DNA from: an uncultured archaeon
GTDB taxonomy: Archaea > Asgardarchaeota > Thorarchaeia > Thorarchaeales > Thorarchaeaceae
NCBI GenBank assembly: GCA_964590575.1
Contig: CAZPWM010000088.1
Coordinates: 1 to 13,238, forward strand
Length of the DNA stretch: 13,238 nt
Direction: 5' to 3'
Shown piece after piece: positions 839 through 12,540 of this stretch. The notes below the pieces were generated by a model, which saw only the letters and a program-made list of their open reading frames with translations, made no database searches and had not been told where the DNA came from. The translations under genes were made by a program, and so were the position numbers. Each line of letters begins with the position of its first letter. Position 1 is the stretch's first letter.

Positions 839-1114
839 GTGGGACGAACAGTCCGCACCTATAGAGATGCGGTCAGGATTGAAGAGGCGAGATGGAAGGA
901 CTTCAGGCGGACCCTTAGGCCGTCCCAGAGAGAACGCTTTGACCGTATTTTTGACTATGCAAGAGGGTTCGCAGATGCAGGCACAATGATGGTGACGCCT
1001 CGTATCATTGAGGTCATTCTGCTTTCTGCAATCTTGGAGATGCTCGGGGAGATTGATGAGATTAAGGGAAGGGTTCAGGTCTTAGAAGAAAAGATCGAGG
1101 AGAACATCCACTGA
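839..1114 (+). CDS. PolB2-associated small helical protein (PPB2 / arCOG07300-like)
   Basis: The N-terminus 'MGRTVRTYRD....E..W..FRR.LR...RE.FD.IF..AR' is characteristic of the small protein encoded next to archaeal polB2. GTG start with AGAGGA SD; its TGA overlaps the polB ATG (TGATG, 1112-1116). Confidence 0.8.
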   Translation: MGRTVRTYRDAVRIEEARWKDFRRTLRPSQRERFDRIFDYARGFADAGTMMVTPRIIEVILLSAILEMLGEIDEIKGRVQVLEEKIEENIH

Positions 1115-3393
1115 TGAAAAAGACTGGATGGCTCTTGGACTGCAGCGTGAACCAAGAGAAACAGGCACTGACCCTCTGGATTAAGAGCGAGGGAAAGACC
1201 AAGGGCTATACCTATCGGGGATTTCATCCTTCTGTATATGTCAGCACAGACTTGATGAGAAGTGCAGATTGGAGTAAAAATGACGTCCTGCGTGCGGTCT
1301 TGGAACATCCCAAAGTAGTACACACAGAGATTGTAAGAAAATACACTAGTGTTTATGATACTGCCATGACTCCAGTGCTGCAAGTGTTCACTACACCAGA
1401 TGCACAACGAGAGGTGGCTGGAGACCTCGAAAGACTGCCCGGGGCTACCGTGTTTCATGCGGATATTGATCCGGTCCACCAGTTCTTCATCACTAGGAAC
1501 ATGTTCGCCTTTGGACGTGTCGAGTTCGAGCTGAAGGGGGATGAGATTGTCAAAGTTGAATGTCTTGACGAGCGCGAGGACCCTGAATACGAGATTCCTG
1601 AGCTAGAGGAGCTGGGATTCGAGGTGTTCGTAGACACTGAGCAGATCTTCCCCAAGATAGAGGACAGGATACACCACATTGAGGTCTACTATAGAGGAGA
1701 AACAATCTGTATCGAGGACCTAGAAGAGAGTAACATTCTCCACAGGTTTCAGAGTGTGATAGACAAGATTGACCCTGATGTGATAACCACAAGGAGAGGC
1801 GATGAGAGCATCTTTAGATACCTTAGTCTACGCGCAGGAGTCAATGGGATAGAACTACAACTCTCGCGGGATGCAACACCATTAAGGGTCACTTACAGAG
1901 AGCCGCAGTCATTCTGGCAATACAACCGGATTGTGTACAGGTCAGGAACACAGGTGACTTTGAACGGGAGGATTCACATTGATAGAGGAAAGACAGGCAT
2001 GCACTTCTTCTCGCCTGTGGGACTTGAGGGTGTCGTGGAGAGCTGTCGGCTCGCGTTAGGTCGACCACAGAGCGTTTCACGGATGACAATTGGTGCAGTG
2101 AATGCGGCGGTTCAATACTACAATGCCTTCAAGATGGATATCCTCATTCCACCAGTCAAACGAAATCCAGAATTTCTCAAGTCACTCAATGAACTGGCAG
2201 CCATCGACCGAGGCGGACTAATTCTTCAACCACGACCAGACATCTATGAAAATGTAGCAGAGTGTGATTTCTCATCAATGTACCCAACCCTCATGGTCAA
2301 CAAGAACATCAGTCCAGAAACCATTTGCACTCGAACTAGCTGCCCCTATGGCGAGGAATACTGCCTTCAAGTTCCAGAACTGAGCTTCAAGATCTGTACT
2401 CGCAAGAGGGGAATCGTGTCGGAATCATTGGAACTACTTGTCAATAGACGGTTTAAATTCAAGGAGTTGATAGAGGATGGTCAAAATGCCAAGAGGTACG
2501 AGTTTGTTCAGAACACATTGAAAGGGGTCTTGGTTTCATGTTTTGGATATCTTGGCTTCAAGAACGCAAAGTTTGGACGTGTGGAAGCACATACTGCAGT
2601 CACAGCATTTGCAAGAGATGTCCTACTCAGAACTCAAGAGATTGGAGAAGAAATGGGACTAGAGATGATTCACGGCATTGTTGACTCAGTCTGGTTGCAG
2701 GCCGAAGGAGAAGTCGAATACGAAAAAGTGGCGGAGTTCTGTGAACGCGTGACAAAGGAAGTTGAAATCAACATGTCCCCCAAAGGAGTTTATAGATGGA
2801 TGGTCATCCCGTCTTCCCGTCTGCACCCCTCAAATGCTCCATTGAACAGGTATTATGGCGTCTACAAAAATGGAGGAATTAAGACACGAGGAATTGAAAC
2901 CCGTAGACGGGACACATGCCTGTATGTCGGAGACTGTCAGAAAGAGATGATTAAGACTCTTGCACATGGCCGAAACAAGGCAGGTTTTCTCGAACAGATG
3001 CCCAATGCGAATGCAGTATGCCAGGAATACATCAGAAGGCTCCATGATGACGATGTTGACCTCAGAGACCTGATTCTCAATTCCACACTCACACGAAATC
3101 CCCACGAGTACCGTGCCACATCCCGAGCGGCAGTGGTTGCTCAGCAACTGGTAAAGGCGGGGCGGGAACTACATGCGGGCCAAAAGGTCCAATATGTGAT
3201 GACATCCGCGGACTCTATGAATCCCCTGCGCAGGGTATGCGCGTTAGAATTGTTCGGAGAATCCACAAGATATGACCCTGAGGCCTACGCTAAACTCTGT
3301 AAACGCGCTTTTGAGAGCCTCATACCTGTACAGTATCTTGACGCAAAGAAACAGATTGATTCAGAACAAACAGTTCTTCTCGCAAATGACTGA
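1114..3393 (+). CDS. polB2: Family B DNA polymerase, archaeal PolB2 (Dpo2) group, with degenerate proofreading exonuclease
   Basis: Motif A 'DFSSMYP' (D385), motif B 'QNTLKGVLVSCFGYLG', motif C 'HGIVDS' in place of YGDTDS, and 'KTRGIETRRRD'. ExoI/II acidic residues are lost ('GFEVF', 'TRRGDESIFRYL'). The adjacent PPB2 gene supports the call. Confidence 0.9.
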   Translation: MKKTGWLLDCSVNQEKQALTLWIKSEGKTKGYTYRGFHPSVYVSTDLMRSADWSKNDVLRAVLEHPKVVHTEIVRKYTSVYDTAMTPVLQVFTTPDAQREVAGDLERLPGATVFHADIDPVHQFFITRNMFAFGRVEFELKGDEIVKVECLDEREDPEYEIPELEELGFEVFVDTEQIFPKIEDRIHHIEVYYRGETICIEDLEESNILHRFQSVIDKIDPDVITTRRGDESIFRYLSLRAGVNGIELQLSRDATPLRVTYREPQSFWQYNRIVYRSGTQVTLNGRIHIDRGKTGMHFFSPVGLEGVVESCRLALGRPQSVSRMTIGAVNAAVQYYNAFKMDILIPPVKRNPEFLKSLNELAAIDRGGLILQPRPDIYENVAECDFSSMYPTLMVNKNISPETICTRTSCPYGEEYCLQVPELSFKICTRKRGIVSESLELLVNRRFKFKELIEDGQNAKRYEFVQNTLKGVLVSCFGYLGFKNAKFGRVEAHTAVTAFARDVLLRTQEIGEEMGLEMIHGIVDSVWLQAEGEVEYEKVAEFCERVTKEVEINMSPKGVYRWMVIPSSRLHPSNAPLNRYYGVYKNGGIKTRGIETRRRDTCLYVGDCQKEMIKTLAHGRNKAGFLEQMPNANAVCQEYIRRLHDDDVDLRDLILNSTLTRNPHEYRATSRAAVVAQQLVKAGRELHAGQKVQYVMTSADSMNPLRRVCALELFGESTRYDPEAYAKLCKRAFESLIPVQYLDAKKQIDSEQTVLLAND

Positions 3394-3398
3394 CCCGT

Positions 3399-4736
3399 CT
3401 ACTCGGTCACAGCACGTGCTTGCATTGCAATCCGTGGTCTTAATTCACGAACAGGGATTCCTGTATCTTTTGCCACCCTGAGGACATCATCAGCTTCAGG
3501 CTTTATGCTTAAAATACTGCCATCCACACTTCGAGAAACCTTCACACGAACCATGTAATCGTTATTATCAATCGTGAAACTACAAACAATGGTTTCGCGG
3601 GAGACCTTGAGTCGCTGCCAAGTAGAGTAACGTATCCCGATTGTACCTAGATTCTTTATCATCAGATCAGCAATACTTTTCAAACCAGCTTTGGCAGCAA
3701 TAACTTTGACCACGTAGCAAGGACGGTTCTTCTTCCCTATTGCGGGTATAACGGTCACATCATAGGCTAACCCCTCAGCAAGAAGGGTATCAAATAATGT
3801 GCCTATCGTTTCACCATCGACATCATCAACATTGGTTTCAATGACTATAACGTCATCTTCATTCCAACCATCGAGCATTTTTGGTTTCTCTTCAGGTTTA
3901 GGCTTTGGTTCTTTGGGAGTCGTGGGTTTTTCCTTCTTCGGTTCTTCTTTGGTTGGACCAGGAATCTCTTCAGATACTACAGTTTCACCAACAACGATGG
4001 ACATCATATTAGGAATATTGCCTAGGTCCCGTGTACCAAAACCGACACCCTGATTCTTGGCTACAAAATCGTCATAGGAGTCGATGAATTTGTCTGCTAT
4101 CGCAATAAGGAGGGCTGCTCCGGTAGGAGTTAGAAGCTCAGTCTTTGCATCTCCATTGTGATATGGAACCTTGTTTGCATCAAGCAACTCAGCCACTGCA
4201 GGGACGGGAACCTCTAGTGGACCATGTTCTGTTTCTATTGTTCCAGAACCCACAGCGACAGAAGTTGCTAGAAACTCAGCTTCACCTAGAAGGCCAGTTC
4301 TCTCAAGGAGGTAGGCAGTTCCTACGATATCGAGAACGGTGTCAACTGTGCCAGTTTCATGAAGATGAAGTTCATCTATTGGTTTATTATGAGCTCTACT
4401 CTCAGCTTCAAGAAGCTCATTTAGAGCTCTTTCAGCGATCTTCTTTCCAGCTTCCGATAGTTCAATTTCTTCAGATACTGAATGAAGTACTTCTGTTATT
4501 GAAGCTGGGGTAAGGCGGATTCCAGGATTCTGTGTTATTTGAAGTTGGCGACCTGTGATTCCAGAATGTGTGTGTGACGTCATGTTTAGACGAAAAGATG
4601 GATCATAAATCAACAAGCTGGCTGCAACGGGAAGCAGAGCATTATTCTCACCAATTAAATCTGTTAGAGCTGAGAGGAACATATCTCCAGAAGCTCCAGC
4701 TGTTGCAACGTTTATGAGTACAGTCTTCTTTGTCAA
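3399..4736 (-). CDS. larC: Nickel-pincer cofactor nickel insertase LarC (fused LarC1+LarC2)
   Basis: 'GASGDMFLSAL', 'AESRAH....ELHLHETG..D...DIVG', 'HG.L.VPVPA', 'ELLTPTGAALL', 'IETNVDDVDGE', 'KKNRP', 'KPEADD'. TTG start with GGAGG SD (4746-4750). Confidence 0.9.
   Translation of the reverse strand: MTKKTVLINVATAGASGDMFLSALTDLIGENNALLPVAASLLIYDPSFRLNMTSHTHSGITGRQLQITQNPGIRLTPASITEVLHSVSEEIELSEAGKKIAERALNELLEAESRAHNKPIDELHLHETGTVDTVLDIVGTAYLLERTGLLGEAEFLATSVAVGSGTIETEHGPLEVPVPAVAELLDANKVPYHNGDAKTELLTPTGAALLIAIADKFIDSYDDFVAKNQGVGFGTRDLGNIPNMMSIVVGETVVSEEIPGPTKEEPKKEKPTTPKEPKPKPEEKPKMLDGWNEDDVIVIETNVDDVDGETIGTLFDTLLAEGLAYDVTVIPAIGKKNRPCYVVKVIAAKAGLKSIADLMIKNLGTIGIRYSTWQRLKVSRETIVCSFTIDNNDYMVRVKVSRSVDGSILSIKPEADDVLRVAKDTGIPVRELRPRIAMQARAVTE
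3879..3962 (-). repeat. Low-complexity Pro/Lys/Glu linker within larC
   Basis: Encodes PGPTKEEPKKEKPTTPKEPKPKPEEKPK between the LarC1 and LarC2 domains. Confidence 0.7.
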
Positions 4737-4887: not shown

Positions 4888-5667
4888 TCAAGAATATTTG
4901 GTTCTTCTCCATTCGTCGAATATAGCCATATACATACATTCTGAGGGGGATATCCACATCTCTGCTGAATCAAATGATTGATCTACATACTCTACTGGAG
5001 CGTTTCTGATGATAGCAGCTGGAACTGACTCATCAGATTCACCCATCACAGCTGTGCATGCTGAAGCAAGATTGTCCGCTATTGCTCTTCGTGTGATGCG
5101 CAGCTCATTTCCAAACAAATCTTTTCTTCCTCGGTCATCAGCGACAGGATAGAATCCAGCAACACCAAGGGCCATTCCAATATTACCCAGTCTCAGAGGT
5201 TGTGTACGACTATCAATAATCAGAACCCCGACATTTTTTCCTAGTCGCCTCTTAATCTCTTCACGCAGTCTTGCAGCACTTGCACGAGAATCCAAAGGTA
5301 GAAGTGAGGCGTGTCCCGGAGGAACATTAGACTTGTCCACACCAGCATTGGCCATCAATGTGTTGTTCTTGATGGTAAGAACCACATGTGGAATTCCACC
5401 AAGAATCTCATCCGCTTCTTGAATAACTAGCTCAGCAATTTCAGGGAGCATCTCGAATTTACGGGCTAATACCTTGGCTTCCTCAGATGGATGTATAGCA
5501 GACATGGCCACAATCCTACCCTCAGTAGTACCAAGGGGAGTTTCAGCGATAGCTACGATATCATTATCCTCCAATTCAAGTCCAACAGATACCAGGCTCT
5601 CCAGGAGGACATCAATGATATTGTCTTTTGGAGTAATTATCCGAGTTTTAATGGGAAGAACATGCAT
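4888..5667 (-). CDS. cofE: CofE-family gamma-glutamyl ligase (coenzyme F420-0:L-glutamate ligase-like)
   Basis: 'DIVAIAET.....EGR', 'ANAGVDKSN', 'LLP.D...SA..LR..I....G..VGV.I.DS...PLR.G..G.ALG.AG', 'D.RG..DLFG..L..T..A.AD.LA......MGE..E..P..IIR'. Confidence 0.85.
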   Translation of the reverse strand: MHVLPIKTRIITPKDNIIDVLLESLVSVGLELEDNDIVAIAETPLGTTEGRIVAMSAIHPSEEAKVLARKFEMLPEIAELVIQEADEILGGIPHVVLTIKNNTLMANAGVDKSNVPPGHASLLPLDSRASAARLREEIKRRLGKNVGVLIIDSRTQPLRLGNIGMALGVAGFYPVADDRGRKDLFGNELRITRRAIADNLASACTAVMGESDESVPAAIIRNAPVEYVDQSFDSAEMWISPSECMYMAIFDEWRRTKYS

Positions 5668-5709
5668 TCAGTATACCCAAAAGAGCTTGCTATGGACTAC
5701 AAGATAAAT

Positions 5710-7140
5710 TCATCCACGTCCCTTGGTCTGAAGCTTCATTCTCTCTGTCATGATGCACCTATCACCTTTCCGACCACCCATGGGATGTCGTGTTGTGCCC
5801 ATTGAGTTCATGCATCTGGCAGCAACAGCAGCCCCCATTGCTAAACCATCCTCAACAAAGAGGAGGTCGTGTGATGAAGTCCATAATTCACCGTTATTCA
5901 GTTTGAGATTCTCAACAATAATCTTGGGTTTTTGACCAGTAATGATTGACCTTCCAGTAAGACCCAATGATGTGTTTTCAAAAATCAGTCCTTCCAAATC
6001 CACAATGGAGAGTATTCTTTGCACAACATTAGCTTGAACCTGATCAATGACTGCTAGAAGGGTTTCAATTCCAGCCTCGTTAATGATGGTTTCACCAATT
6101 TTTTCTAATTTCTTGAGTTTAGACCCGTTGTTACCGACATCCACTCCAATCAATAGGACTCCAGCGGCTTCTGCGGAGTTTCCATTGACTGGAACCGTGC
6201 CAAAGCGAGTGTCTGTTTTTTGAACTCGTTCAACCCGGATATATTTGTCCGCTTCATGAACCCATTTATCATCGATTACTACTCTCTTGGAGCTTTCTAA
6301 ATCAGGAATATCCATGACAGACCCATTCTTCTCTGGAACCAAGCCAGACAGACGAACTAAGGAGTCAGGAATTGCCCCTGCAAGCCCTGCAAAGGAGCCT
6401 ATTGTTTTTGCATATGGATATCCATTGTCTGTAATCCGACCTGCTAAAGTAGTGCCAAAATCAAGTGTCATGACAGGATTCCGGAAGTCGATGTCAGTGC
6501 TTTTTGCAGCACCTTTGATACCCGCAGTCACGAGCTCACCCTCCATCTCATTGGCAACGATATCCGTGTCTGAAGGCGGCAACGAACTGGCCACTGCACC
6601 ATCAAAATAGACTTTCTTCAACCAAGTGAAGTCTTGAAGTCCGGGCGGTAGATTTCCTGCAGATAGTGAGGCGGTCATCTTGCGAGGTGGAACCCCTGCA
6701 TTTAGACATCCGTCTGCAAGAGCCTGAACGATGACTCCAACTTCGTCGGGACTAGCGAATCCAGCAGTCACACCCGTTGACCTCACCACAAAATGCAGGT
6801 CACGTTCCATGTCGAGTCTTGCTCGGTTCAATACTGTGGTCAAGACATCGGTAATCATCTCTGACACAGACTTGCGAGTAAGGTCAACTCCGAAGATTGT
6901 TCTTCCAAAAACGGTCTCGCCTGGTCCTGGGGGACGAACATCCCTTGTGAATCGTACTTCTTTTTCTATCTCATAAATCTCGGCGGTTTGCAGATTAGTT
7001 GTCACCAGTATGCATTTTGTCGTTGTATTGCCCAATTCAACTGAAGCAACGGTGTAAAAGGGACCTTTTCGGAGAGATGACACTCCAATCGAGCGAGGAT
7101 GGATGATCCTATCTTTTCTTGTCATTCTGAACACGCCCAA
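5710..7140 (-). CDS. Methanogenesis marker protein 14 (DUF2114-like), predicted ASKHA-fold ATPase
   Basis: 'ASVELGNTTTKCIL', 'TRDVRPP.PGE.VFG.T', 'DLHFVVRSTGVTAGFASP.EVG', 'VANEMEGELVTAGIK', 'DFRNP..TLDFGTTLAGRI', 'EDGLAMGAAVAARCMNSMGT...P.GG..G..CI' match the Mmp14 family as recalled. Start is TTG 7140 or ATG 7125. Confidence 0.8.
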   Translation of the reverse strand: MGVFRMTRKDRIIHPRSIGVSSLRKGPFYTVASVELGNTTTKCILVTTNLQTAEIYEIEKEVRFTRDVRPPGPGETVFGRTIFGVDLTRKSVSEMITDVLTTVLNRARLDMERDLHFVVRSTGVTAGFASPDEVGVIVQALADGCLNAGVPPRKMTASLSAGNLPPGLQDFTWLKKVYFDGAVASSLPPSDTDIVANEMEGELVTAGIKGAAKSTDIDFRNPVMTLDFGTTLAGRITDNGYPYAKTIGSFAGLAGAIPDSLVRLSGLVPEKNGSVMDIPDLESSKRVVIDDKWVHEADKYIRVERVQKTDTRFGTVPVNGNSAEAAGVLLIGVDVGNNGSKLKKLEKIGETIINEAGIETLLAVIDQVQANVVQRILSIVDLEGLIFENTSLGLTGRSIITGQKPKIIVENLKLNNGELWTSSHDLLFVEDGLAMGAAVAARCMNSMGTTRHPMGGRKGDRCIMTERMKLQTKGRG

Positions 7141-7141
7141 A

Positions 7142-8077
7142 TTAGAGTAGTTTCTTGTAGGGATGGTTATCTGGAGGACCTATACCAAACTCAAGTTCCA
7201 ATGACTCAGCAGTAAAGATATCGCCCATTGCAATAACAGGAAACACACGCTCAGCATTCTCAATAGGGCCATAGAGTATAAAATCAGCCCCCATCATCTG
7301 GACTATGAGATTTGACGCAGCATCAGCAGTCAAGAAACTTTCACGGTTGACTTTCTTGTATTTTCGTAACCACGGCCAAGAGGATGGAGCATTATGTACG
7401 CCCGAACCAGTGGGTTGTCCATAAACTGTCTTCGATACAAAAGTAAATGCAGCGGCAGATCCAGCACCAGCGCCCATCGCTGTAACAGCAGTGTCAATAA
7501 GAGGTTTGATAATGCCTAACTCTTTGGCAATATCAAGAAGGCCTTTTTTGAGTGTGAGGACACCTTCTTCTAAGACAGCTCTTCTTCCTGCAATCGAAGG
7601 GTCTTGCGGATTAAATGCAAGAAGTAGTGCACACTCGTGGTGGATATCTCGTAGTGCTTCTATCTCTTCCTCCGTAGCGGACACATTGAGAGAATTATAG
7701 ATTGCTCGATCTAAGAGACCAACCTCTTCAGCATGCCTTAGGCCTGCAATTCGGACCATCGGTTCTGTTGAGTCAATGAGAAAGGGAGCTGCAGTAAGGT
7801 CTGCTACAAAATCAATGTATTTCTTTAAGGCGCCTTCAGATTCAGAAAAAATCTGAACAAGAGCTGGATTACCTGTGATGGTGGACATCTCGTCCTGTTT
7901 CTGAACCAGGGAAGTGGCGATGGCTTTGTCAAACACTCCCTTCTTTGCATCAGTAACTATCTTGTGACCACTATAGAAGATGGTTCCAGCTAAGACAGTC
8001 GAGGTCTCTCCGGGATTGCCTCCGATTTTGACTCCACCAATTGTGTGGATTACCTGTTCTTTCTCAAATACGAACAT
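7142..8077 (-). CDS. mtrH: MtrH-family methyl-pterin:corrinoid methyltransferase, copy 1 (canonical-like)
   Basis: 'MFVFEKEQ....IGGVKIGG.PGE..TVLAGTIFY.GHKIV.D...G.FDK', 'PFLIDST', 'IYNSLN', 'LIDTA', 'PTGSGVHNAPSSW.WL', 'GADFILYGPIENA'. GGGAGG SD. Confidence 0.9.
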   Translation of the reverse strand: MFVFEKEQVIHTIGGVKIGGNPGETSTVLAGTIFYSGHKIVTDAKKGVFDKAIATSLVQKQDEMSTITGNPALVQIFSESEGALKKYIDFVADLTAAPFLIDSTEPMVRIAGLRHAEEVGLLDRAIYNSLNVSATEEEIEALRDIHHECALLLAFNPQDPSIAGRRAVLEEGVLTLKKGLLDIAKELGIIKPLIDTAVTAMGAGAGSAAAFTFVSKTVYGQPTGSGVHNAPSSWPWLRKYKKVNRESFLTADAASNLIVQMMGADFILYGPIENAERVFPVIAMGDIFTAESLELEFGIGPPDNHPYKKLL

Positions 8078-8082
8078 GTGTC

Positions 8083-8769
8083 CTAAACCTCCCTTCCAAA
8101 GAGGATTGTACCGGTTTCATCACCTTGCATTTCAATGATAGCTGATGAGGGGTTTTCTGATACAATACCATTTGATTGATGGCGCTTTACAAGAGAGCTC
8201 GACAACTCGAAAACGACGCCATATTCGGGCAGGAGTATCACATCAGCCCCCATTAATCGCGTTGGTGATTTCCTAGCGGCAACTTTGAATTCCACCCACA
8301 TGGCTCCTTTGGTGTATTCCCCCGGATTCTCAGCACTTAGATCTCTAGATTTGGTATCTAATATTGCGGGGTCACTTGTGTTAATCATATCAACTAGTTC
8401 GATTTGATCTCTGAATTGCTCTATCCCTTCTAAGGGTATATTCTCGATATACGGAATTGCACCCTCAGCGTTGATTATCTTCCGAGTTGTCGGGTCGACG
8501 CCATTTTGGTAGAGCGCCCTCATTGAGCGACCTGTGAAATGACCAGGAACTTCAGGTCCAGCTAAAATTAGATATCGTATCTTGGGATTTGAAATGACAT
8601 TGATAATAACTCGTTCAATACCAATATTTTCAGTCTTACAAGTGCCGATGATGGCATACTCTGTGTCCACACTAATCTTCTTACCAAGCGTGCATATTGC
8701 GACACAATGAGAGGGGTTTCCAATCTCAAAATCTCCTGATATAGGAGGCCAATTGTGATCGCTGCTCAT
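8083..8769 (-). CDS. mtrA: MtrA/MtxA-like corrinoid protein, soluble (no C-terminal TM helix)
   Basis: 'WPPISGDF.IGNP...VAICTL', 'G.CKTENIGIERVI.NVISNP.IRYLILAG.EV.GH.TG.S' (H77 matches the Co-ligand His), 'I.AEGAIPYIEN'. The C-terminal ~65 aa has no hydrophobic helix. Confidence 0.88.
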   Translation of the reverse strand: MSSDHNWPPISGDFEIGNPSHCVAICTLGKKISVDTEYAIIGTCKTENIGIERVIINVISNPKIRYLILAGPEVPGHFTGRSMRALYQNGVDPTTRKIINAEGAIPYIENIPLEGIEQFRDQIELVDMINTSDPAILDTKSRDLSAENPGEYTKGAMWVEFKVAARKSPTRLMGADVILLPEYGVVFELSSSLVKRHQSNGIVSENPSSAIIEMQGDETGTILFGREV

Positions 8770-8786
8770 TGTGTTTTTTCACGCTC

Positions 8787-9704
8787 CTATTCGTATGTTG
8801 GCGGATCAAATATCAATCTGTCAATGTTTAATGCTCTACTTGCCTCAGCTCCAGCTGATGCCATGGCATTCCCAATCAAAGCCACTGCAGTGAAAACTTC
8901 CTTTGTATGAATCATAGACCCATACATGACAGAGTCTGCGGCAAAGAGCTGGGCTGCAACTGTTGACGCTACTAGGGCTGCAACCTGAATGGATTCATCA
9001 TCGAGTCCAGGTTGTCTAATGAACCTCCATGCTGAGGGGGCGTTATGCGGCCCTAGACATGTAGGAAGACCCAATTCTGATTTTATTGCCAGCGTGGTTC
9101 TGTATTCAAGGCCATAACCAGCACCGACAGGCATCGTCGCGGGATCTATGAGAACTTTCTCAATACCTAGAAATTCAGAGAGAGTAAGCACATCCTTAAT
9201 GGTTTCCATTCTATCAGGTAGTGTCATGGCTCGTGGAGACCATCCCAGGACTACTGCCATGTTTATTGAACTGTTCTTCAGAATATCCTTTTCATCATCC
9301 TTCATCGAGAGGTTGATTGAATTGTAGATTGTTCTCTCAGAAAGTCCAGACTCATCACAGTATTCGATAGCTCGCATACGTGCCTTAGCATTTGTGGATT
9401 CAAACATGAATGGACCATCAAAGTTGTCAGCTAGCCAAGAGAGATGATTCTCCATGGCAACAGGAGTTCGCCCATATGCTTGGATGATAAGAGGGTGACC
9501 TGTCTTTTCGACCATGGATAATCCAGTGTCTATCCATTGTTTTGCAGTAGTCTTGTCGAAAATGCCTTCCCTTGTGTTTTCCATTATCGGTTGACCCTTG
9601 AAGAATAAACCACCAATTAGAACGGTTGGATGTTCTCCGGGATGACCACCAATGGGTATACTTCCGAAATCGAATACTTGTTGTTCCTTCTTGAAGACGA
9701 ACAT
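8787..9704 (-). CDS. mtrH: MtrH-family methyltransferase, copy 2 (divergent)
   Basis: 'MFVFKKEQQVFDFG.I.IGG.PGE.PTVLIG.LF', 'G.FDK', 'IYNSIN', 'LIDPA', 'GPHNAPSAW', 'AD..MYG'. ATG 9704 is preceded by a GAGGTGA SD that contains the metF stop, and it aligns with the copy 1 start. Confidence 0.85.
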   Translation of the reverse strand: MFVFKKEQQVFDFGSIPIGGHPGEHPTVLIGGLFFKGQPIMENTREGIFDKTTAKQWIDTGLSMVEKTGHPLIIQAYGRTPVAMENHLSWLADNFDGPFMFESTNAKARMRAIEYCDESGLSERTIYNSINLSMKDDEKDILKNSSINMAVVLGWSPRAMTLPDRMETIKDVLTLSEFLGIEKVLIDPATMPVGAGYGLEYRTTLAIKSELGLPTCLGPHNAPSAWRFIRQPGLDDESIQVAALVASTVAAQLFAADSVMYGSMIHTKEVFTAVALIGNAMASAGAEASRALNIDRLIFDPPTYE

Positions 9705-9708
9705 TGCT

Positions 9709-10641
9709 TCACCTCTCTCCTTTCGGTCTTGGGTATAATCCAGCACCTTTGACTATTGCGACTATACTTTCAGGCCATCCGACACCCATAAGATGCAATC
9801 CATTGATACCATCAATCCCACGGATTAAGTCAATGGTTTCAAGTGCGATTTGAATACCTTCCGCTTTCATCGCAATCATACTAGCATCTTCATTAAGGCC
9901 TCTACCGGCATCATCAAGACGTTTAATGAACTTATCAGGGACTTGTATTCCTGGAACGAACGTGTTCATGAACTTAGCCATCTCCGAGTCTCGAAGGGGT
10001 ATGACACCAGCCAGAACTATAAAATCCGAATCAACACGATTCATGAAATCTTCGAGTCGTGATGGGTCGAATATGGCTTGGGTCTGAAAGAACTGAGCTC
10101 CTGCCTCTCGCTTCTTTTGAGTTCGTTGCACATGTTCATCGATTGGATCATCATTCGGATTGATTGTGGCGCCAAGAAAGAACTCGGGTATTCCTTCCAA
10201 CTCATCCCCAGCATAGTCTAACCCACTTGAAAGATGTTTAGCCATGGAGAGGGTTTCAAGAGTATCTAAATCGTAGACCATCTTTGCGTCGGGATGTGAC
10301 CCAAATCGAGCAGGGTCACCAGCCATGAACAGGATATTCCTGACTCCCAGTGCGAAAGCTCCATAGAGGTCACTCTGAAGGGAAATCCGATTCCGATCCC
10401 TTGTGGTTATGTGTAAGACTGGTTCTGCTCCTGCTTGAAGGACATAATGGGCACATACTGTGCTACTCATTGTTGGAACTCCTCGGGCATTGTCAGGTAT
10501 ATTGATAGCATCACAAAACTCGCGGACCATCTCAACACGCTCGATGAGTATAGAGGAGTCTGCTCCATGAGGTGCACCAATCTCACCTGTGACTACGAAT
10601 TCGCCTCTATCAAGCAAATGTTTGAAACGTGTATCTTGCAG
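9709..10641 (-). CDS. metF: Methylenetetrahydrofolate reductase MetF (anaerobe type)
   Basis: 'FVVTGEI', 'AINIPDN', 'EPVLHITTRDRNRISLQSDL.GA.ALGVRNIL...GD', 'HPDAK.VYDLD', 'K..AGAQFFQTQ.IFD', 'AGVIPL', 'GLHLM'. Start uncertain: TTG 10617 (track) or in-frame CTG 10641. Confidence 0.88.
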   Translation of the reverse strand: MQDTRFKHLLDRGEFVVTGEIGAPHGADSSILIERVEMVREFCDAINIPDNARGVPTMSSTVCAHYVLQAGAEPVLHITTRDRNRISLQSDLYGAFALGVRNILFMAGDPARFGSHPDAKMVYDLDTLETLSMAKHLSSGLDYAGDELEGIPEFFLGATINPNDDPIDEHVQRTQKKREAGAQFFQTQAIFDPSRLEDFMNRVDSDFIVLAGVIPLRDSEMAKFMNTFVPGIQVPDKFIKRLDDAGRGLNEDASMIAMKAEGIQIALETIDLIRGIDGINGLHLMGVGWPESIVAIVKGAGLYPRPKGER

Positions 10642-10701: not shown

Positions 10702-12540
10702 CTAGATTAATCGGACATCAAACTTTTTCCTCACAACAAATGAACCCACAATGATTGTCACAACTGTTGATGTTGAGAAGATCAACAGGAATTCAAGTGA
10801 CGGGAAGGGAGGTGGAGGACTACCATTTGAAGTGGGAGGTGGGGAAGAAATATTTCCGGGGATCCAATGATACTTGGAATTTTTTGTAAGCTCGTAGTAC
10901 TCACCAACAACAAAGTCGGTTAAGATGAATGGTCCGCAAGTCACATGAGGTTCTTCAGGGTTGAACACTGGCTCCCAGGTGTTCCACCCCTCGTAGCCAA
11001 TACCAGCACCAGGCTCGAAGATGTGCTTTGGAATAATGTACTCGTAGGCAATATTGAAAAAATTCCAATATGACTCCGTGCTGAACTCAATTACTACCCT
11101 GTATGGCGTGGGGGCGTACGCGACCACAAGACCGCTAATTCTGTTGACACTTCTGTTGACGTAATTAAAGGTAAATGCGATATCCTCAGCTGTCAGAGGT
11201 TCACCATCACTCCAACTTGCGTTCTGAATGATATCAAAGGTGAAACGCATATGGTATAATGGGAATATGGTTACGCTAGAATGATTGCTCTGTATTTCAA
11301 CAAGCTTAGATTCTACTAGGTTTGGAATTGGGTTCATGTTGGGATCGTGAGAATATAGTGATGAGTACAGATTCTCAAAAATCATGTATGAATAATAAGA
11401 GTATATAGTGTAGATGTTGAAGCTGATTGGGTCTCGGCTAATTGCGACGTTAATCGTACCACCACAGGTATTACAGATTTTTTGAATTTTTCTCAAAGTC
11501 CATGGACCGGATATATATCGTTCGAGGTCCTCAACATGACCCTCGAACTTGTCAGTCCTATATCCTTGCATGATAGTATTTTGACACGCTACTAGTATTG
11601 GAACATTGTAGTGCAGGATCTTCTGCATCTCAGTTGAAGCTTCAGAAACCTCTTCGTATGTTTTCCCGTTGCGGAATTGGCGTATCCAAGAGTCATACGT
11701 GTCATTCCTAAAATTGGACGGATTATGATAGGGAAGGGCTACGTACCCGCTCCCGTATTGAGAAACCAACCAGTCTATATCATCATAATCGACACCCATA
11801 CTATATGCCATCATGTCAAAATTATCATTTTCAGGCGGCACGGGAGGATACCAGAAATCTAATGGTTCACAATCTGCACTCACATTTAGAGAGTGGAGAG
11901 CTTCGACAGCAATATTTGCGATTTCGAAATGTACGTCGCCAAATCTCCATTCATAAAGAACTGAAACAGAAAACGGAATGCCATTCGGTGCATCTCTGAA
12001 CCCTGTGATGTTATTTATAGTGAATCCCAGCTCATCTAGGATTGTGTTTCCAATCTCAGGTTCTGCGTCATAGTAGTGAAAATCAAAGAGGTCTTCTGCA
12101 CACCATCGATTGACAGAGGGCACTAACGAATCATGGAGTGATGCGTGTCCGCCAAAGATTTCATACATGACTTTGGTCTTGTTGAATGCAAAAGCAAAAG
12201 ACCGTCTAAACCCACTGATGTTGAAAGGATAACGATTACAGTTAATTATGATAGCCCAGTAACCGTTTCTAGAAAATTCAGCTACATCAATATCCGGATC
12301 TGCACTGAGGGTAGACAGATTAGGGGGTTCGATGAAACCAATATCCATATCGATTTCTCCAGTTTGAAGGGCTTGTATTCTCAATTCATAATCATCGATA
12401 ACTTTGTAGACAACCTTGTCAACATATGGTCCATGCTGTAAGTCATCTCGGACTTCAACTGAAACTGTGTTAGATGACTGTAGAAAGATGATCAAGAAAA
12501 TACAACAGAGTGCTACGGCACTCTGTGAACACCTCAACAC
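10702..12540 (-). CDS. Family 5 (Opp/Dpp/Nik) ABC solute-binding protein, membrane-anchored, circularly permuted
   Basis: N-terminal signal peptide; SBP5 motifs 'ALQTGEIDM', 'FRRSFAFAFNK', 'MQKIL..NVP.L', 'PNLVES', 'WSDGEPLTAEDIAFTF', 'TCGPF.L......Y.L.KN..Y'; C-terminal Pro/Ser linker, TM helix and RKK tail. Confidence 0.85.
   Translation of the reverse strand: MLRCSQSAVALCCIFLIIFLQSSNTVSVEVRDDLQHGPYVDKVVYKVIDDYELRIQALQTGEIDMDIGFIEPPNLSTLSADPDIDVAEFSRNGYWAIIINCNRYPFNISGFRRSFAFAFNKTKVMYEIFGGHASLHDSLVPSVNRWCAEDLFDFHYYDAEPEIGNTILDELGFTINNITGFRDAPNGIPFSVSVLYEWRFGDVHFEIANIAVEALHSLNVSADCEPLDFWYPPVPPENDNFDMMAYSMGVDYDDIDWLVSQYGSGYVALPYHNPSNFRNDTYDSWIRQFRNGKTYEEVSEASTEMQKILHYNVPILVACQNTIMQGYRTDKFEGHVEDLERYISGPWTLRKIQKICNTCGGTINVAISRDPISFNIYTIYSYYSYMIFENLYSSLYSHDPNMNPIPNLVESKLVEIQSNHSSVTIFPLYHMRFTFDIIQNASWSDGEPLTAEDIAFTFNYVNRSVNRISGLVVAYAPTPYRVVIEFSTESYWNFFNIAYEYIIPKHIFEPGAGIGYEGWNTWEPVFNPEEPHVTCGPFILTDFVVGEYYELTKNSKYHWIPGNISSPPPTSNGSPPPPFPSLEFLLIFSTSTVVTIIVGSFVVRKKFDVRLI

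Follow-up and report, generated by a model that had tools for sequence, protein, structure and literature searches.

A soluble MtrH'-MtrA-MtrH unit linked to MetF in Thorarchaeia: a candidate methyl shuttle between pterin carriers

The stretch of 13,238 nucleotides analyzed here (the window) is the entire contig CAZPWM010000088.1 (C88) of a Thorarchaeota metagenome-assembled genome (MAG) that measures 3.40 Mb in 194 contigs and is 91.45% complete with 2.48% contamination; close homologues bear the names Candidatus Thorarchaeota or Promethearchaeota. Its minus strand carries, from 10617 to 4888, six co-oriented genes for a MetF-like protein, a divergent MtrH paralogue (MtrH'), MtrA, a canonical MtrH, methanogenesis marker 14 and a CofE-family protein. 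This cluster is a conserved unit and a real variant of the known soluble MtrAH systems, and in all likelihood it constitutes a soluble, non-pumping methyl-transfer module that is functionally tied to MetF. Regarding what the module accomplishes, we put forward more tentatively that it may pass methyl groups from pterin to pterin, connecting tetrahydromethanopterin (H4MPT) with, most likely, tetrahydrofolate (H4F).

In favor of such a shuttle, the tight operon places a single corrinoid carrier between two pterin-methyltransferase paralogues that differ from each other, and searches for MtrE, McrA, methionine synthase and AcsE/MetH found no other acceptor route. Two intact pterin methyltransferases that share one carrier can yield net chemistry only if the pterin or the corrinoid partner differs, or if one of them is non-catalytic. 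As neither a coenzyme M (CoM) branch nor a methionine synthase was found, and as MetF stands at the head of the operon, we rate the pterin-to-pterin shuttle as the leading explanation. In the proposed scheme, canonical MtrH would exchange methyl groups between CH3-H4MPT and the cob(I)amide of the anchor-less MtrA, and a neofunctionalized MtrH' would do so between this MtrA and another pterin, which is most probably H4F. On one side of the exchange, MetF (with MetV in other Thorarchaeia) would make or consume the methyl-pterin; on the other, CH3-H4MPT would be used by the archaeal acetyl-CoA decarbonylase/synthase (Cdh), and the marker 14 ASKHA ATPase would keep the MtrA cobamide as active Co(I). 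Folate one-carbon (C1) units derived from amino acids, together with MetF, would thus be linked to archaeal Cdh, or the flow could be reversed. The gene content, the solubility, the conservation, the intact catalytic residues in both MtrH copies and the two sets of pterin enzymes in the host are observed; we infer that MtrH' works on MtrA with a pterin unlike the one used by MtrH, that H4F is this pterin, in which direction methyl groups flow, and that marker 14 serves as an activase.

A conserved soluble unit

An earlier note on this DNA had described six co-oriented genes separated by gaps of 4, 17, 5, 1 and 42 nt, and both the coordinates (read from MetF to CofE) and family scans bear this out. 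The unit begins with a MetF-like methylene-tetrahydropterin reductase (9709..10617, on the minus strand like all that follow; 302 aa), whose end had been placed at 10641; the frame is indeed open up to that position, but the first ATG, GTG or TTG codon, and hence the start, is the TTG at 10617. It is followed by MtrH' (8787..9704; 305 aa; PF02007 242 bits), a divergent pterin:corrinoid methyltransferase paralogue of a Thorarchaeia type whose ATG start agrees with the N-terminus of the second MtrH, and then by the soluble cobamide carrier MtrA (8083..8769; 228 aa; PF04208 186 bits). Canonical MtrH, of the CH3-H4MPT:cob(I)amide methyltransferase type (7142..8077; 311 aa), precedes marker 14, also known as DUF2114 and a putative ATPase of ASKHA fold (5710..7140; 476 aa), and the unit closes with the CofE-family gamma-glutamyl ligase (4888..5667; 259 aa; TIGR01916 195.1 bits, cut-off 180.65). 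A scan for bacterial-type promoters and terminators, which is ill-suited to archaea, returned counts at the level of shuffled sequence. The DNA itself is contained in 23 DNA sequencing runs, labelled as salt marsh, aquatic and sediment metagenomes, and in 0 RNA runs.

MtrA, which is present as a single copy in the genome, has retained the EVxGH cobalt-ligand motif, its GPEVPGH aligning with the GSEVQGH of 8q3v and 5laa; we take the histidine of this motif to be the cobalt ligand. Where MtrA of the membrane Mtr complex has a C-terminal transmembrane helix, the window protein has a conserved polar beta module instead, and its maximum 19-residue Kyte-Doolittle mean is 1.25 vs. 2.25 in the neighboring membrane-anchored solute-binding protein (SBP). 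In an AlphaFold2 (AF2) model the N-terminal domain is confident, the linker at residues 164–174 is disordered, and residues 177–228 are modelled as beta structure with low pLDDT; the LLPE and GT motifs of this C-terminal module are nevertheless invariant across 29 sequences. It is tempting to speculate that the module docks MtrA to the MtrH proteins. The earlier description of two divergent MtrH paralogues flanking an anchor-less MtrA therefore stands, given the hydropathy profile and the identity of only 33% between MtrH' and MtrH.

A search for related loci yielded 42, comprising 37 from Asgard MAGs and five from Methanosarcinales or ANME-2. As far as their contigs extend, the 37 Asgard loci without exception show the gene order of the window, so that the synteny asked about in the earlier note holds across these loci. 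The five genes MetF, MtrH', MtrA, MtrH and marker 14 are all present in 30 of the 37, CofE is also seen in 28, and LarC and a divergent family-B DNA polymerase usually come next. The identity of MtrH' across these loci falls no lower than 60%. At the level of genomes, MtrH' is present in 25/28 members of the genus (7/7 of those of high quality), while MtrA was detected in 42 of the 43 remaining family genomes and, in a sample of 201 Asgard genomes, in 65. The MtrH'-MtrA-MtrH triad also occurs in a second Asgard family, on a short contig (L135, G027:C86, 815–3512) where MtrH' and MtrH are 49 and 56% identical to their window counterparts and MtrA, at 258 aa, carries the same C-terminal LLPE module. 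This contig stops before the reach of any MetF, and its opposite end holds an open frame of HNH or transposon-like character. MtrA-MtrH fusions are encoded at six loci of other Asgard families, seen as long frames in several of these families, and no MetF, marker 14 or second MtrH was found within ~8 kb of them.

The MetF-like protein matches PF02219 at 107 bits (cut-off 24) over profile positions 6–286 of 287 and is encoded by the sole PF02219 gene in the genome. It falls below the cut-off of the NAD(P)H-type equivalogue model TIGR00676 (49.9 vs. 293.7 bits) and is far from the methylenetetrahydrofolate reductases of solved structure (E 1.6e-6). No gene for the MetV partner (PF12225) was found in the window genome, and MetV occurs in 2/28 genomes of the genus. 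Ten of the 37 related Asgard loci have MetV ahead of the MetF orthologue, immediately adjacent in eight of them and with SBP genes in between in the other two (L021 and L027). In the window, the gene next to MetF is a family-5 SBP (10702-12540) with a Pro/Ser-rich linker and a C-terminal hydrophobic anchor, located between an HflX-like GTPase and MetF in the place that MetV occupies in eight of the ten MetV loci. Two of the Methanosarcinales loci also have a MetV-like gene ~6–7 kb downstream of mtrH (L048, 10566–11153; L049, 8686–9201), 31–34% identical to Thorarchaeial MetV.

The two MtrH copies

The two MtrH proteins fall on either side of the TIGR01114 equivalogue cut-off of 271.4 bits, with MtrH scoring 389 and MtrH' 238.5. 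Canonical MtrH, which matches M. mazei MtrH (9qtp) at 271.6 bits, retains T32, Q75, E79, D103 and F156 (M. mazei numbering, used throughout) together with the basic R/K-K-K patch. Among 1.84 billion cluster representatives, the MtrH' clade comprises one full-length representative (81% identical) and fragments, remains separate at 50% clustering, and has its nearest full-length neighbor outside the clade at 38% identity. A quick maximum likelihood tree of 110 rows, with SH-aLRT as the only support measure and 41 of 107 inner branches unresolved, places the MtrH' clade on a long stem (1.13) with full support (SH-aLRT 100).

To compare individual sites, 34 MtrH' and 32 Thorarchaeial MtrH orthologues were aligned to 9qtp and 6sj8, with the roles of the sites taken from the structures of the M. 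mazei and M. marburgensis proteins (PMC12774963; PMC10998594; and a 2026 bioRxiv preprint). The pterin-binding and catalytic residues N129, D196, H229 and N230 are invariant in both groups (34/34 and 32/32). Other positions differ between the two groups. The pterin-pocket residue T32 is replaced by G in 34/34 MtrH' (MtrH: T in 31/32, S in one), the pterin-binding D103 by E in 34/34 (MtrH: D in 32/32), and F156 by W in 34/34 (W155 in MtrH' numbering; MtrH: F in 32/32). An E at the D103 position is otherwise a rarity, being found in 1/92 representatives of the MtrH family. The docking residue E79 is R in 34/34 MtrH' (MtrH: E in 31/32, S in one), and the K242/K243 pair, basic in Thorarchaeial MtrH (K or R, then K), is neutral or acidic and then L or F in MtrH'. 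At positions 200 and 201, MtrH' has M (32/34) and P (34/34) as in M. mazei, where Thorarchaeial MtrH has T (32/32) and A (31/32); in the M. mazei structure M200 and P201 touch the corrinoid and E79 touches MtrA (PMC12774963; PMC10998594). MtrH' of the second Asgard family shares G32, E103 and W156 but retains a basic patch (KKTIKR), which makes the pocket changes the feature that defines the clade.

Mean column identity is 77% for MtrH' and MtrH alike. Together with the invariant catalytic residues, this suggests that MtrH' is a constrained protein under purifying selection and a catalytically plausible, specialized enzyme, and it runs counter to the concern, voiced in the earlier note, that one copy might be inactive. 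The clade-fixed substitutions in the pterin pocket fit a change of substrate. A complex prediction for MtrH, MtrH' and MtrA returned scores of 0.08 and 0.02 against a mark of 0.32, and speaks neither for nor against binding. The genome also encodes a third MtrH-family protein, a lone gene on contig C100 that adjoins a beta-lactamase-family gene and carries the commoner states S32 and D75.

Host one-carbon metabolism and competing explanations

The host encodes enzymes of both pterin systems between which a shuttle would operate. On the H4MPT side we found Mtd, Mch and the complete archaeal CdhA, CdhC, CdhD and CdhE, and on the folate side a cluster of Fhs, FolD and formiminotransferase-cyclodeaminase (FTCD), with GcvT beside FolP. 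The earlier note had asked whether one of the two pathways might be missing, and both are thus represented; Thorarchaeota have been described as having the Wood-Ljungdahl methyl branch in two versions, one with H4MPT and one with folate (PMC6737245). The folate cluster (L059, G000:C23, 3517–9125) stands back to back with a RuBisCO large-subunit homologue and points to catabolic folate use in histidine breakdown. As for a full membrane Mtr complex, MtrE (PF04206) was found in 0/31 genomes, the window MAG included, with MtrB, C, D, F and G not searched individually, and McrA was not found in the whole MAG (91.45% complete). Searches for PF01717 in the genome and for PF02574 in 13 genomes of the genus found neither, which leaves no recognizable methionine synthase. 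An AcsE- or MetH-type methyl-H4F:corrinoid methyltransferase was likewise considered and ruled out, the only PF00809 protein in the genome being FolP (TIGR01496, 238 bits). Moreover, a Mer equivalogue is lacking in the window genome (best score 201 vs. 348.7 bits) and in 20/28 genomes of the genus, so that CH3-H4MPT for Cdh must come from another source.

Several observations weigh against the H4MPT/H4F shuttle. True Mer (~440 bits) is found in 7/28 genomes of the genus, with one further partial match, and at least six genomes hold true Mer and MtrH' together, so the cluster is not simply a Mer bypass. In addition, all 28 genus genomes, those with true Mer among them, encode a Mer-like paralogue that scores ~200 bits, below the cut-offs; it is an F420-dependent LLM oxidoreductase (G000:C21:15015-15959, L004) whose top models are two Mer equivalogues. 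A clean argument from the lack of Mer is consequently not available. Nor is MetF a secure anchor for folate. ANME-1-type MetF is reported to group with Asgard MetF, and H4MPT has been proposed as its substrate (PMC9012536), so by analogy the window protein may act on H4MPT as well; the earlier claim that a folate enzyme leads the operon thus holds as regards the position of the MetF-like gene, whereas its use of folate is an assumption. The genome contains other corrinoid proteins that could partner MtrH' in place of MtrA, including one between two URO-D-type methyltransferases (C32), a further one on C22, and one beside an MtmB-family homologue (C40; L125, G000:C40, 2407–3786 and 3789–4571). 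The MtmB homologue is an uninterrupted frame of 459 aa that lacks an internal amber codon, and genes for oligopeptide ABC ATPases adjoin the pair.

The descent and the pocket of MtrH' point in the same direction. In the tree, MtrH' falls inside a 39-row canonical group (SH-aLRT 91) that includes the Thorarchaeial and Methanosarcinales canonical MtrH, its position within the group being unresolved. It also has the canonical-group insertion that carries K242 and K243 in M. mazei MtrH, which is missing from 69–73 of 92 MtrH-family representatives. Tree and insertion together indicate that MtrH' arose by an old duplication of canonical MtrH and was not imported as an MtgA-like gene. The placement of both copies in a tree, which the earlier note had called for, is accordingly achieved relative to canonical MtrH, the tree having been built without the characterized MtgA, MtoA and MtxH. 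The comparison with MtgA of Desulfitobacterium hafniense (6SJ8/6SK4), a TIM-barrel member of the MtrH family that also transfers methyl groups between corrinoid and pterin, is instructive here: the pterin residues D, N, D and N align, but MtgA has S32, D75 and S229 where MtrH' has G, Q and H, so that at positions 75 and 229 MtrH' keeps the canonical Q and H. The MtgA model NF047990 (cut-off 550) scores MtrH' lower than MtrH (160.7 vs. 210.7 bits); the cut-off was reached by none of the nine tree representatives scanned, nor by the third MtrH (175.3 bits). Finally, the basic tail-binding patch is swapped for neutral or acidic residues in MtrH' of Thorarchaeia, and its loss would not favor a glutamylated folate tail either. 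As far as the sequences go, no feature ties MtrH' to folate. The soluble H4MPT:H4F transmethylase of the earlier note is therefore supported insofar as the unit is soluble, conserved, separate from membrane Mtr and housed in a cell with both pterin systems, but its folate half is not.

These observations lend themselves to other explanations. One is that the entire unit works with H4MPT: MetF(V) would replace Mer, MtrH would load MtrA, and MtrH' would pass the methyl group, to be stored or used in biosynthesis, to a non-folate acceptor, for instance some other cofactor or a pterin in modified form. The scarcity of Mer equivalogues in the genus, the H4MPT use proposed for related MetF proteins (PMC9012536), the canonical descent of MtrH' with its Q75 and H229, and the possibility that the CofE paralogue of the operon tailors a cofactor tail all suit this explanation. 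However, six genomes have both true Mer and the cluster, the Mer-like paralogue occurs in every genome of the genus, there is no known candidate for the acceptor, and the full folate set of the host would be left with no enzyme at the methyl level; we regard it as unlikely, if by no means negligible. A different possibility is that the MtrH copies differ in the corrinoid protein they serve and not in their pterin, with MtrA being one of several carriers and MtrH' (or MtrH) bringing methyl groups from MtmC- or MtaC-like corrinoid proteins into H4MPT. The corrinoid proteins that accompany URO-D-type (C32) or MtmB-like (C40) methyltransferases, along with that of C22, could be such partners, the E79R exchange reverses the charge at a residue that contacts MtrA in M. 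mazei, and a flow of methyl groups through MtrAH into the Wood-Ljungdahl pathway has been proposed (PMC9635834; PMC7886697). Yet MtrH' always lies beside MtrA (37/37 loci) and never beside those corrinoid systems, its fixed changes cover the pterin pocket (D103E, T32G) and not docking alone, and the stand-alone third MtrH would be the more natural candidate. A methylotrophic role of this kind thus seems doubtful.

It is also conceivable that MtrH' is a structural paralogue, forming a heterodimer with MtrH that has a single working site and in which the chief task of MtrH' is to tether or regulate MtrA; the module would then be a remnant of methanogenesis that does no more than bring CH3-H4MPT and methyl-cobamide into equilibrium. 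The canonical MtrH homodimer binds MtrA mainly through one protomer (PMC12774963), the new C-terminal module of MtrA could dock on such a dimer, and a published account treats the Thorarchaeial cluster as a remnant (PMC9635834). In a mere scaffold, though, one would not expect the four pterin and catalytic residues to be invariant in 34 orthologues and in the second family, and synteny with MetF, marker 14 and CofE would hardly persist over 60–90% sequence divergence in a remnant that performs no net chemistry, so that we consider this improbable. More improbable still, to the point that we give it very little weight, is an anabolic supply in which methyl-MtrA donates to a corrinoid-dependent methionine synthase. 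MtrA has been predicted to be the methyl donor for the core methionine synthase MesA (PMC7857596), but no PF01717 protein (MetE or core MetE) was found in the genome, PF02574 is found in 0/13 genomes of the genus, and the second MtrH would be left unexplained.

To return to the inter-pterin shuttle, it can be extended to a complete hybrid pathway, in which a bacterial-type branch of Fhs, FolD and MetF, fed also by glycine cleavage and histidine breakdown, would deliver methyl groups to the archaeal acetyl-CoA synthase. The MtrH'-MtrA-MtrH unit would then act as a CH3-H4F:H4MPT transmethylase and marker 14 as the activase of the MtrA cobamide. Taken in all its parts, this version of the Wood-Ljungdahl pathway is rather unlikely to be correct.

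Marker 14, neighboring genes and related systems

The identity of marker 14 is well supported by sequence, with 601 bits for TIGR03285 (cut-off 274), 622 bits for PF09887, and 47–52% identity to Methanosarcinia orthologues. An AF2 model built from 38 sequences (Thorarchaeia and 18 Methanosarcinia orthologues, 47–88% identical) has a pLDDT of 86.3 and a pTM of 0.89 and adopts an ASKHA fold. Its best VIA match is CoaX (Z 17.2), followed by the benzoyl-CoA reductase ATPase subunit and FtsA (both 17.1), the 2-hydroxyacyl-CoA dehydratase activator (15.8), EutJ (15.7) and diol dehydratase reactivase (12.3), and the corrinoid activase RACo (3zyy, E 5e-6) is among the Foldseek matches. An ESM Atlas match to EutA, at 0.83, lies under the 0.9 line and serves as a lead only. 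The fold searches reveal a generic ASKHA fold and do not single out a specific reactivase. All 38 sequences share the ASKHA phosphate motifs without change, as well as the cysteines C443 and C462; these are the only invariant cysteines, and Pfam detects no Fe-S domain. Sequence searches gave no match in the PDB and no second Pfam family even at E 10.

In Thorarchaeia, marker 14 starts 1 nt after mtrH, whereas no mtr genes were found within 1.5 kb of marker 14 in 24 Methanosarcinia loci. From the modelled fold and this linkage, we infer that marker 14 may be an ATP-dependent activase or chaperone of the MtrA cobamide. The corrinoid activases RACo and RamA resemble it in having an ASKHA fold and a gene beside a presumed corrinoid client, but no Fe-S domain is recognizable in marker 14, and RACo is not the best structural match. 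One Methanosarcinia orthologue (L074, G053:C12, 1486–2928, minus strand) contains a single in-frame stop within the aligned stretch, perhaps owing to recoding, to an error or to decay into a pseudogene, and it was kept out of the alignment.

The CofE-family gene closing the unit is one of three in the genome and the most divergent of them, scoring 195 bits for TIGR01916 as compared with 252 for the paralogue on C99 (~2336–3118) and 236 for that on C150 (~2470–3198). As both paralogues score higher, the window copy need not be the housekeeping CofE. The model TIGR04132, "folate metabolism gamma-glutamate ligase," gives the window copy 115.6 bits against 65.8 and 83, all below its cut-off of 350. 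A CofE-like gene from another Asgard family, with 34% identity to the window copy, lies directly upstream of an MtrA-MtrH fusion (L130, G104:C6, 7296–7928 and 8047–9531), a separate, second association of the CofE family with MtrA and MtrH. Downstream of cofE, after 151 nt, comes a LarC-type nickel-insertion protein (3399..4736, minus strand; PF01969 316 bits; above the cut-offs of TIGR00299 and NF052512), which is next to CofE in every related locus that reaches so far, and whose membership in the unit is uncertain. Beyond it, in divergent orientation, is a family-B DNA polymerase (1114–3393) with a weak match of its exonuclease domain (26 bits), syntenic with the cluster wherever loci reach it. 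A PPOX-class, probably F420-dependent oxidoreductase gene (121–675) stands at the start of the contig and, with eight LLM-class matches in the genome, points to heavy F420 use.

The unit shares with membrane Mtr (8Q3V, 9QTS) the histidine-ligand motif of MtrA and an MtrH equivalogue with its pterin residues and basic patch, and marker 14 is co-distributed with Mtr (PMC9635834). In the window system, however, MtrA has no membrane helix, and MtrE (0/31 genomes), McrA or a CoM-methylating subunit was not found; a divergent second MtrH takes the place of the second half-reaction, and ions cannot be pumped. Closer to the present case, canonical MtrAH and a marker "tied to Mtr" (m26) have been reported in Thorarchaeia as remnants of methanogenesis, with the methyltransferase serving a mixotrophic, Wood-Ljungdahl-centered metabolism (Adam et al., 2022, PMC9635834). 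The lineage is the same and, by all appearances, so are the MtrA, MtrH and marker genes. The text of that study, as available, mentions no second MtrH, no linkage to MetF(V) or CofE and no pterin-to-pterin role, though its supplements may hold synteny.

Soluble MtrA and MtrH homologues outside the membrane complex are also known from mtxXAH of Methanosarcinales and the mtrAH of the Methanomassiliicoccales "MALP," the latter with a divergent MtrH proposed to use folate and an MtrA proposed to carry an unusual extension at its C-terminus (PMC6147122; PMC12978539). In contrast to the window, both systems have a single MtrH-type gene and CoM as the proposed acceptor, and the available portions of these reports describe no linkage to MetF, marker 14 or CofE. 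Among non-methanogenic Asgard archaea, the Atabeyarchaeia and Freyarchaeia encode MtrA-MtrH fusions (PMC11291895) which, unlike the separate genes of the window, are fused and have lower-scoring MtrA-like domains. The MtrAH of Sif- and Jordarchaeia has been proposed to be an H4MPT:CoM methyltransferase (PMC9723677), and CoP-MtrH couples are reported from Bathyarchaeia (PMC7886697). The earlier statement that no characterized system has this architecture accordingly holds, even though the Thorarchaeial MtrAH and m26 remnants had already been published (PMC9635834). In the literature, supplements not covered, we found no account of a second MtrH around MtrA in Thorarchaeia or of its pocket changes, and no description of a MetF(V)-MtrH'-MtrA-MtrH-marker 14-CofE unit or of an H4MPT/H4F shuttle.

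All components are small soluble proteins, and the shuttle hypothesis is therefore open to ordinary reconstitution in vitro; likewise, the linkage of marker 14 with MtrA and MtrH offers a directly testable function for a conserved "methanogenesis marker." Were marker 14 the activase of the MtrA cobamide, its function would be assigned in all methanogens as well. The link between the H4MPT and folate carrier pools of Thorarchaeota is left unexplained in those parts of the literature that we consulted. If true, the exchange of methyl groups between pterins by way of a soluble corrinoid protein would add a new activity to those known for enzymes and would explain how genomes without Mer supply the archaeal acetyl-CoA synthase. 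It would also mean that a piece of the energy-conserving Mtr complex was re-used after the loss of methanogenesis in the lineage closest to eukaryotes.

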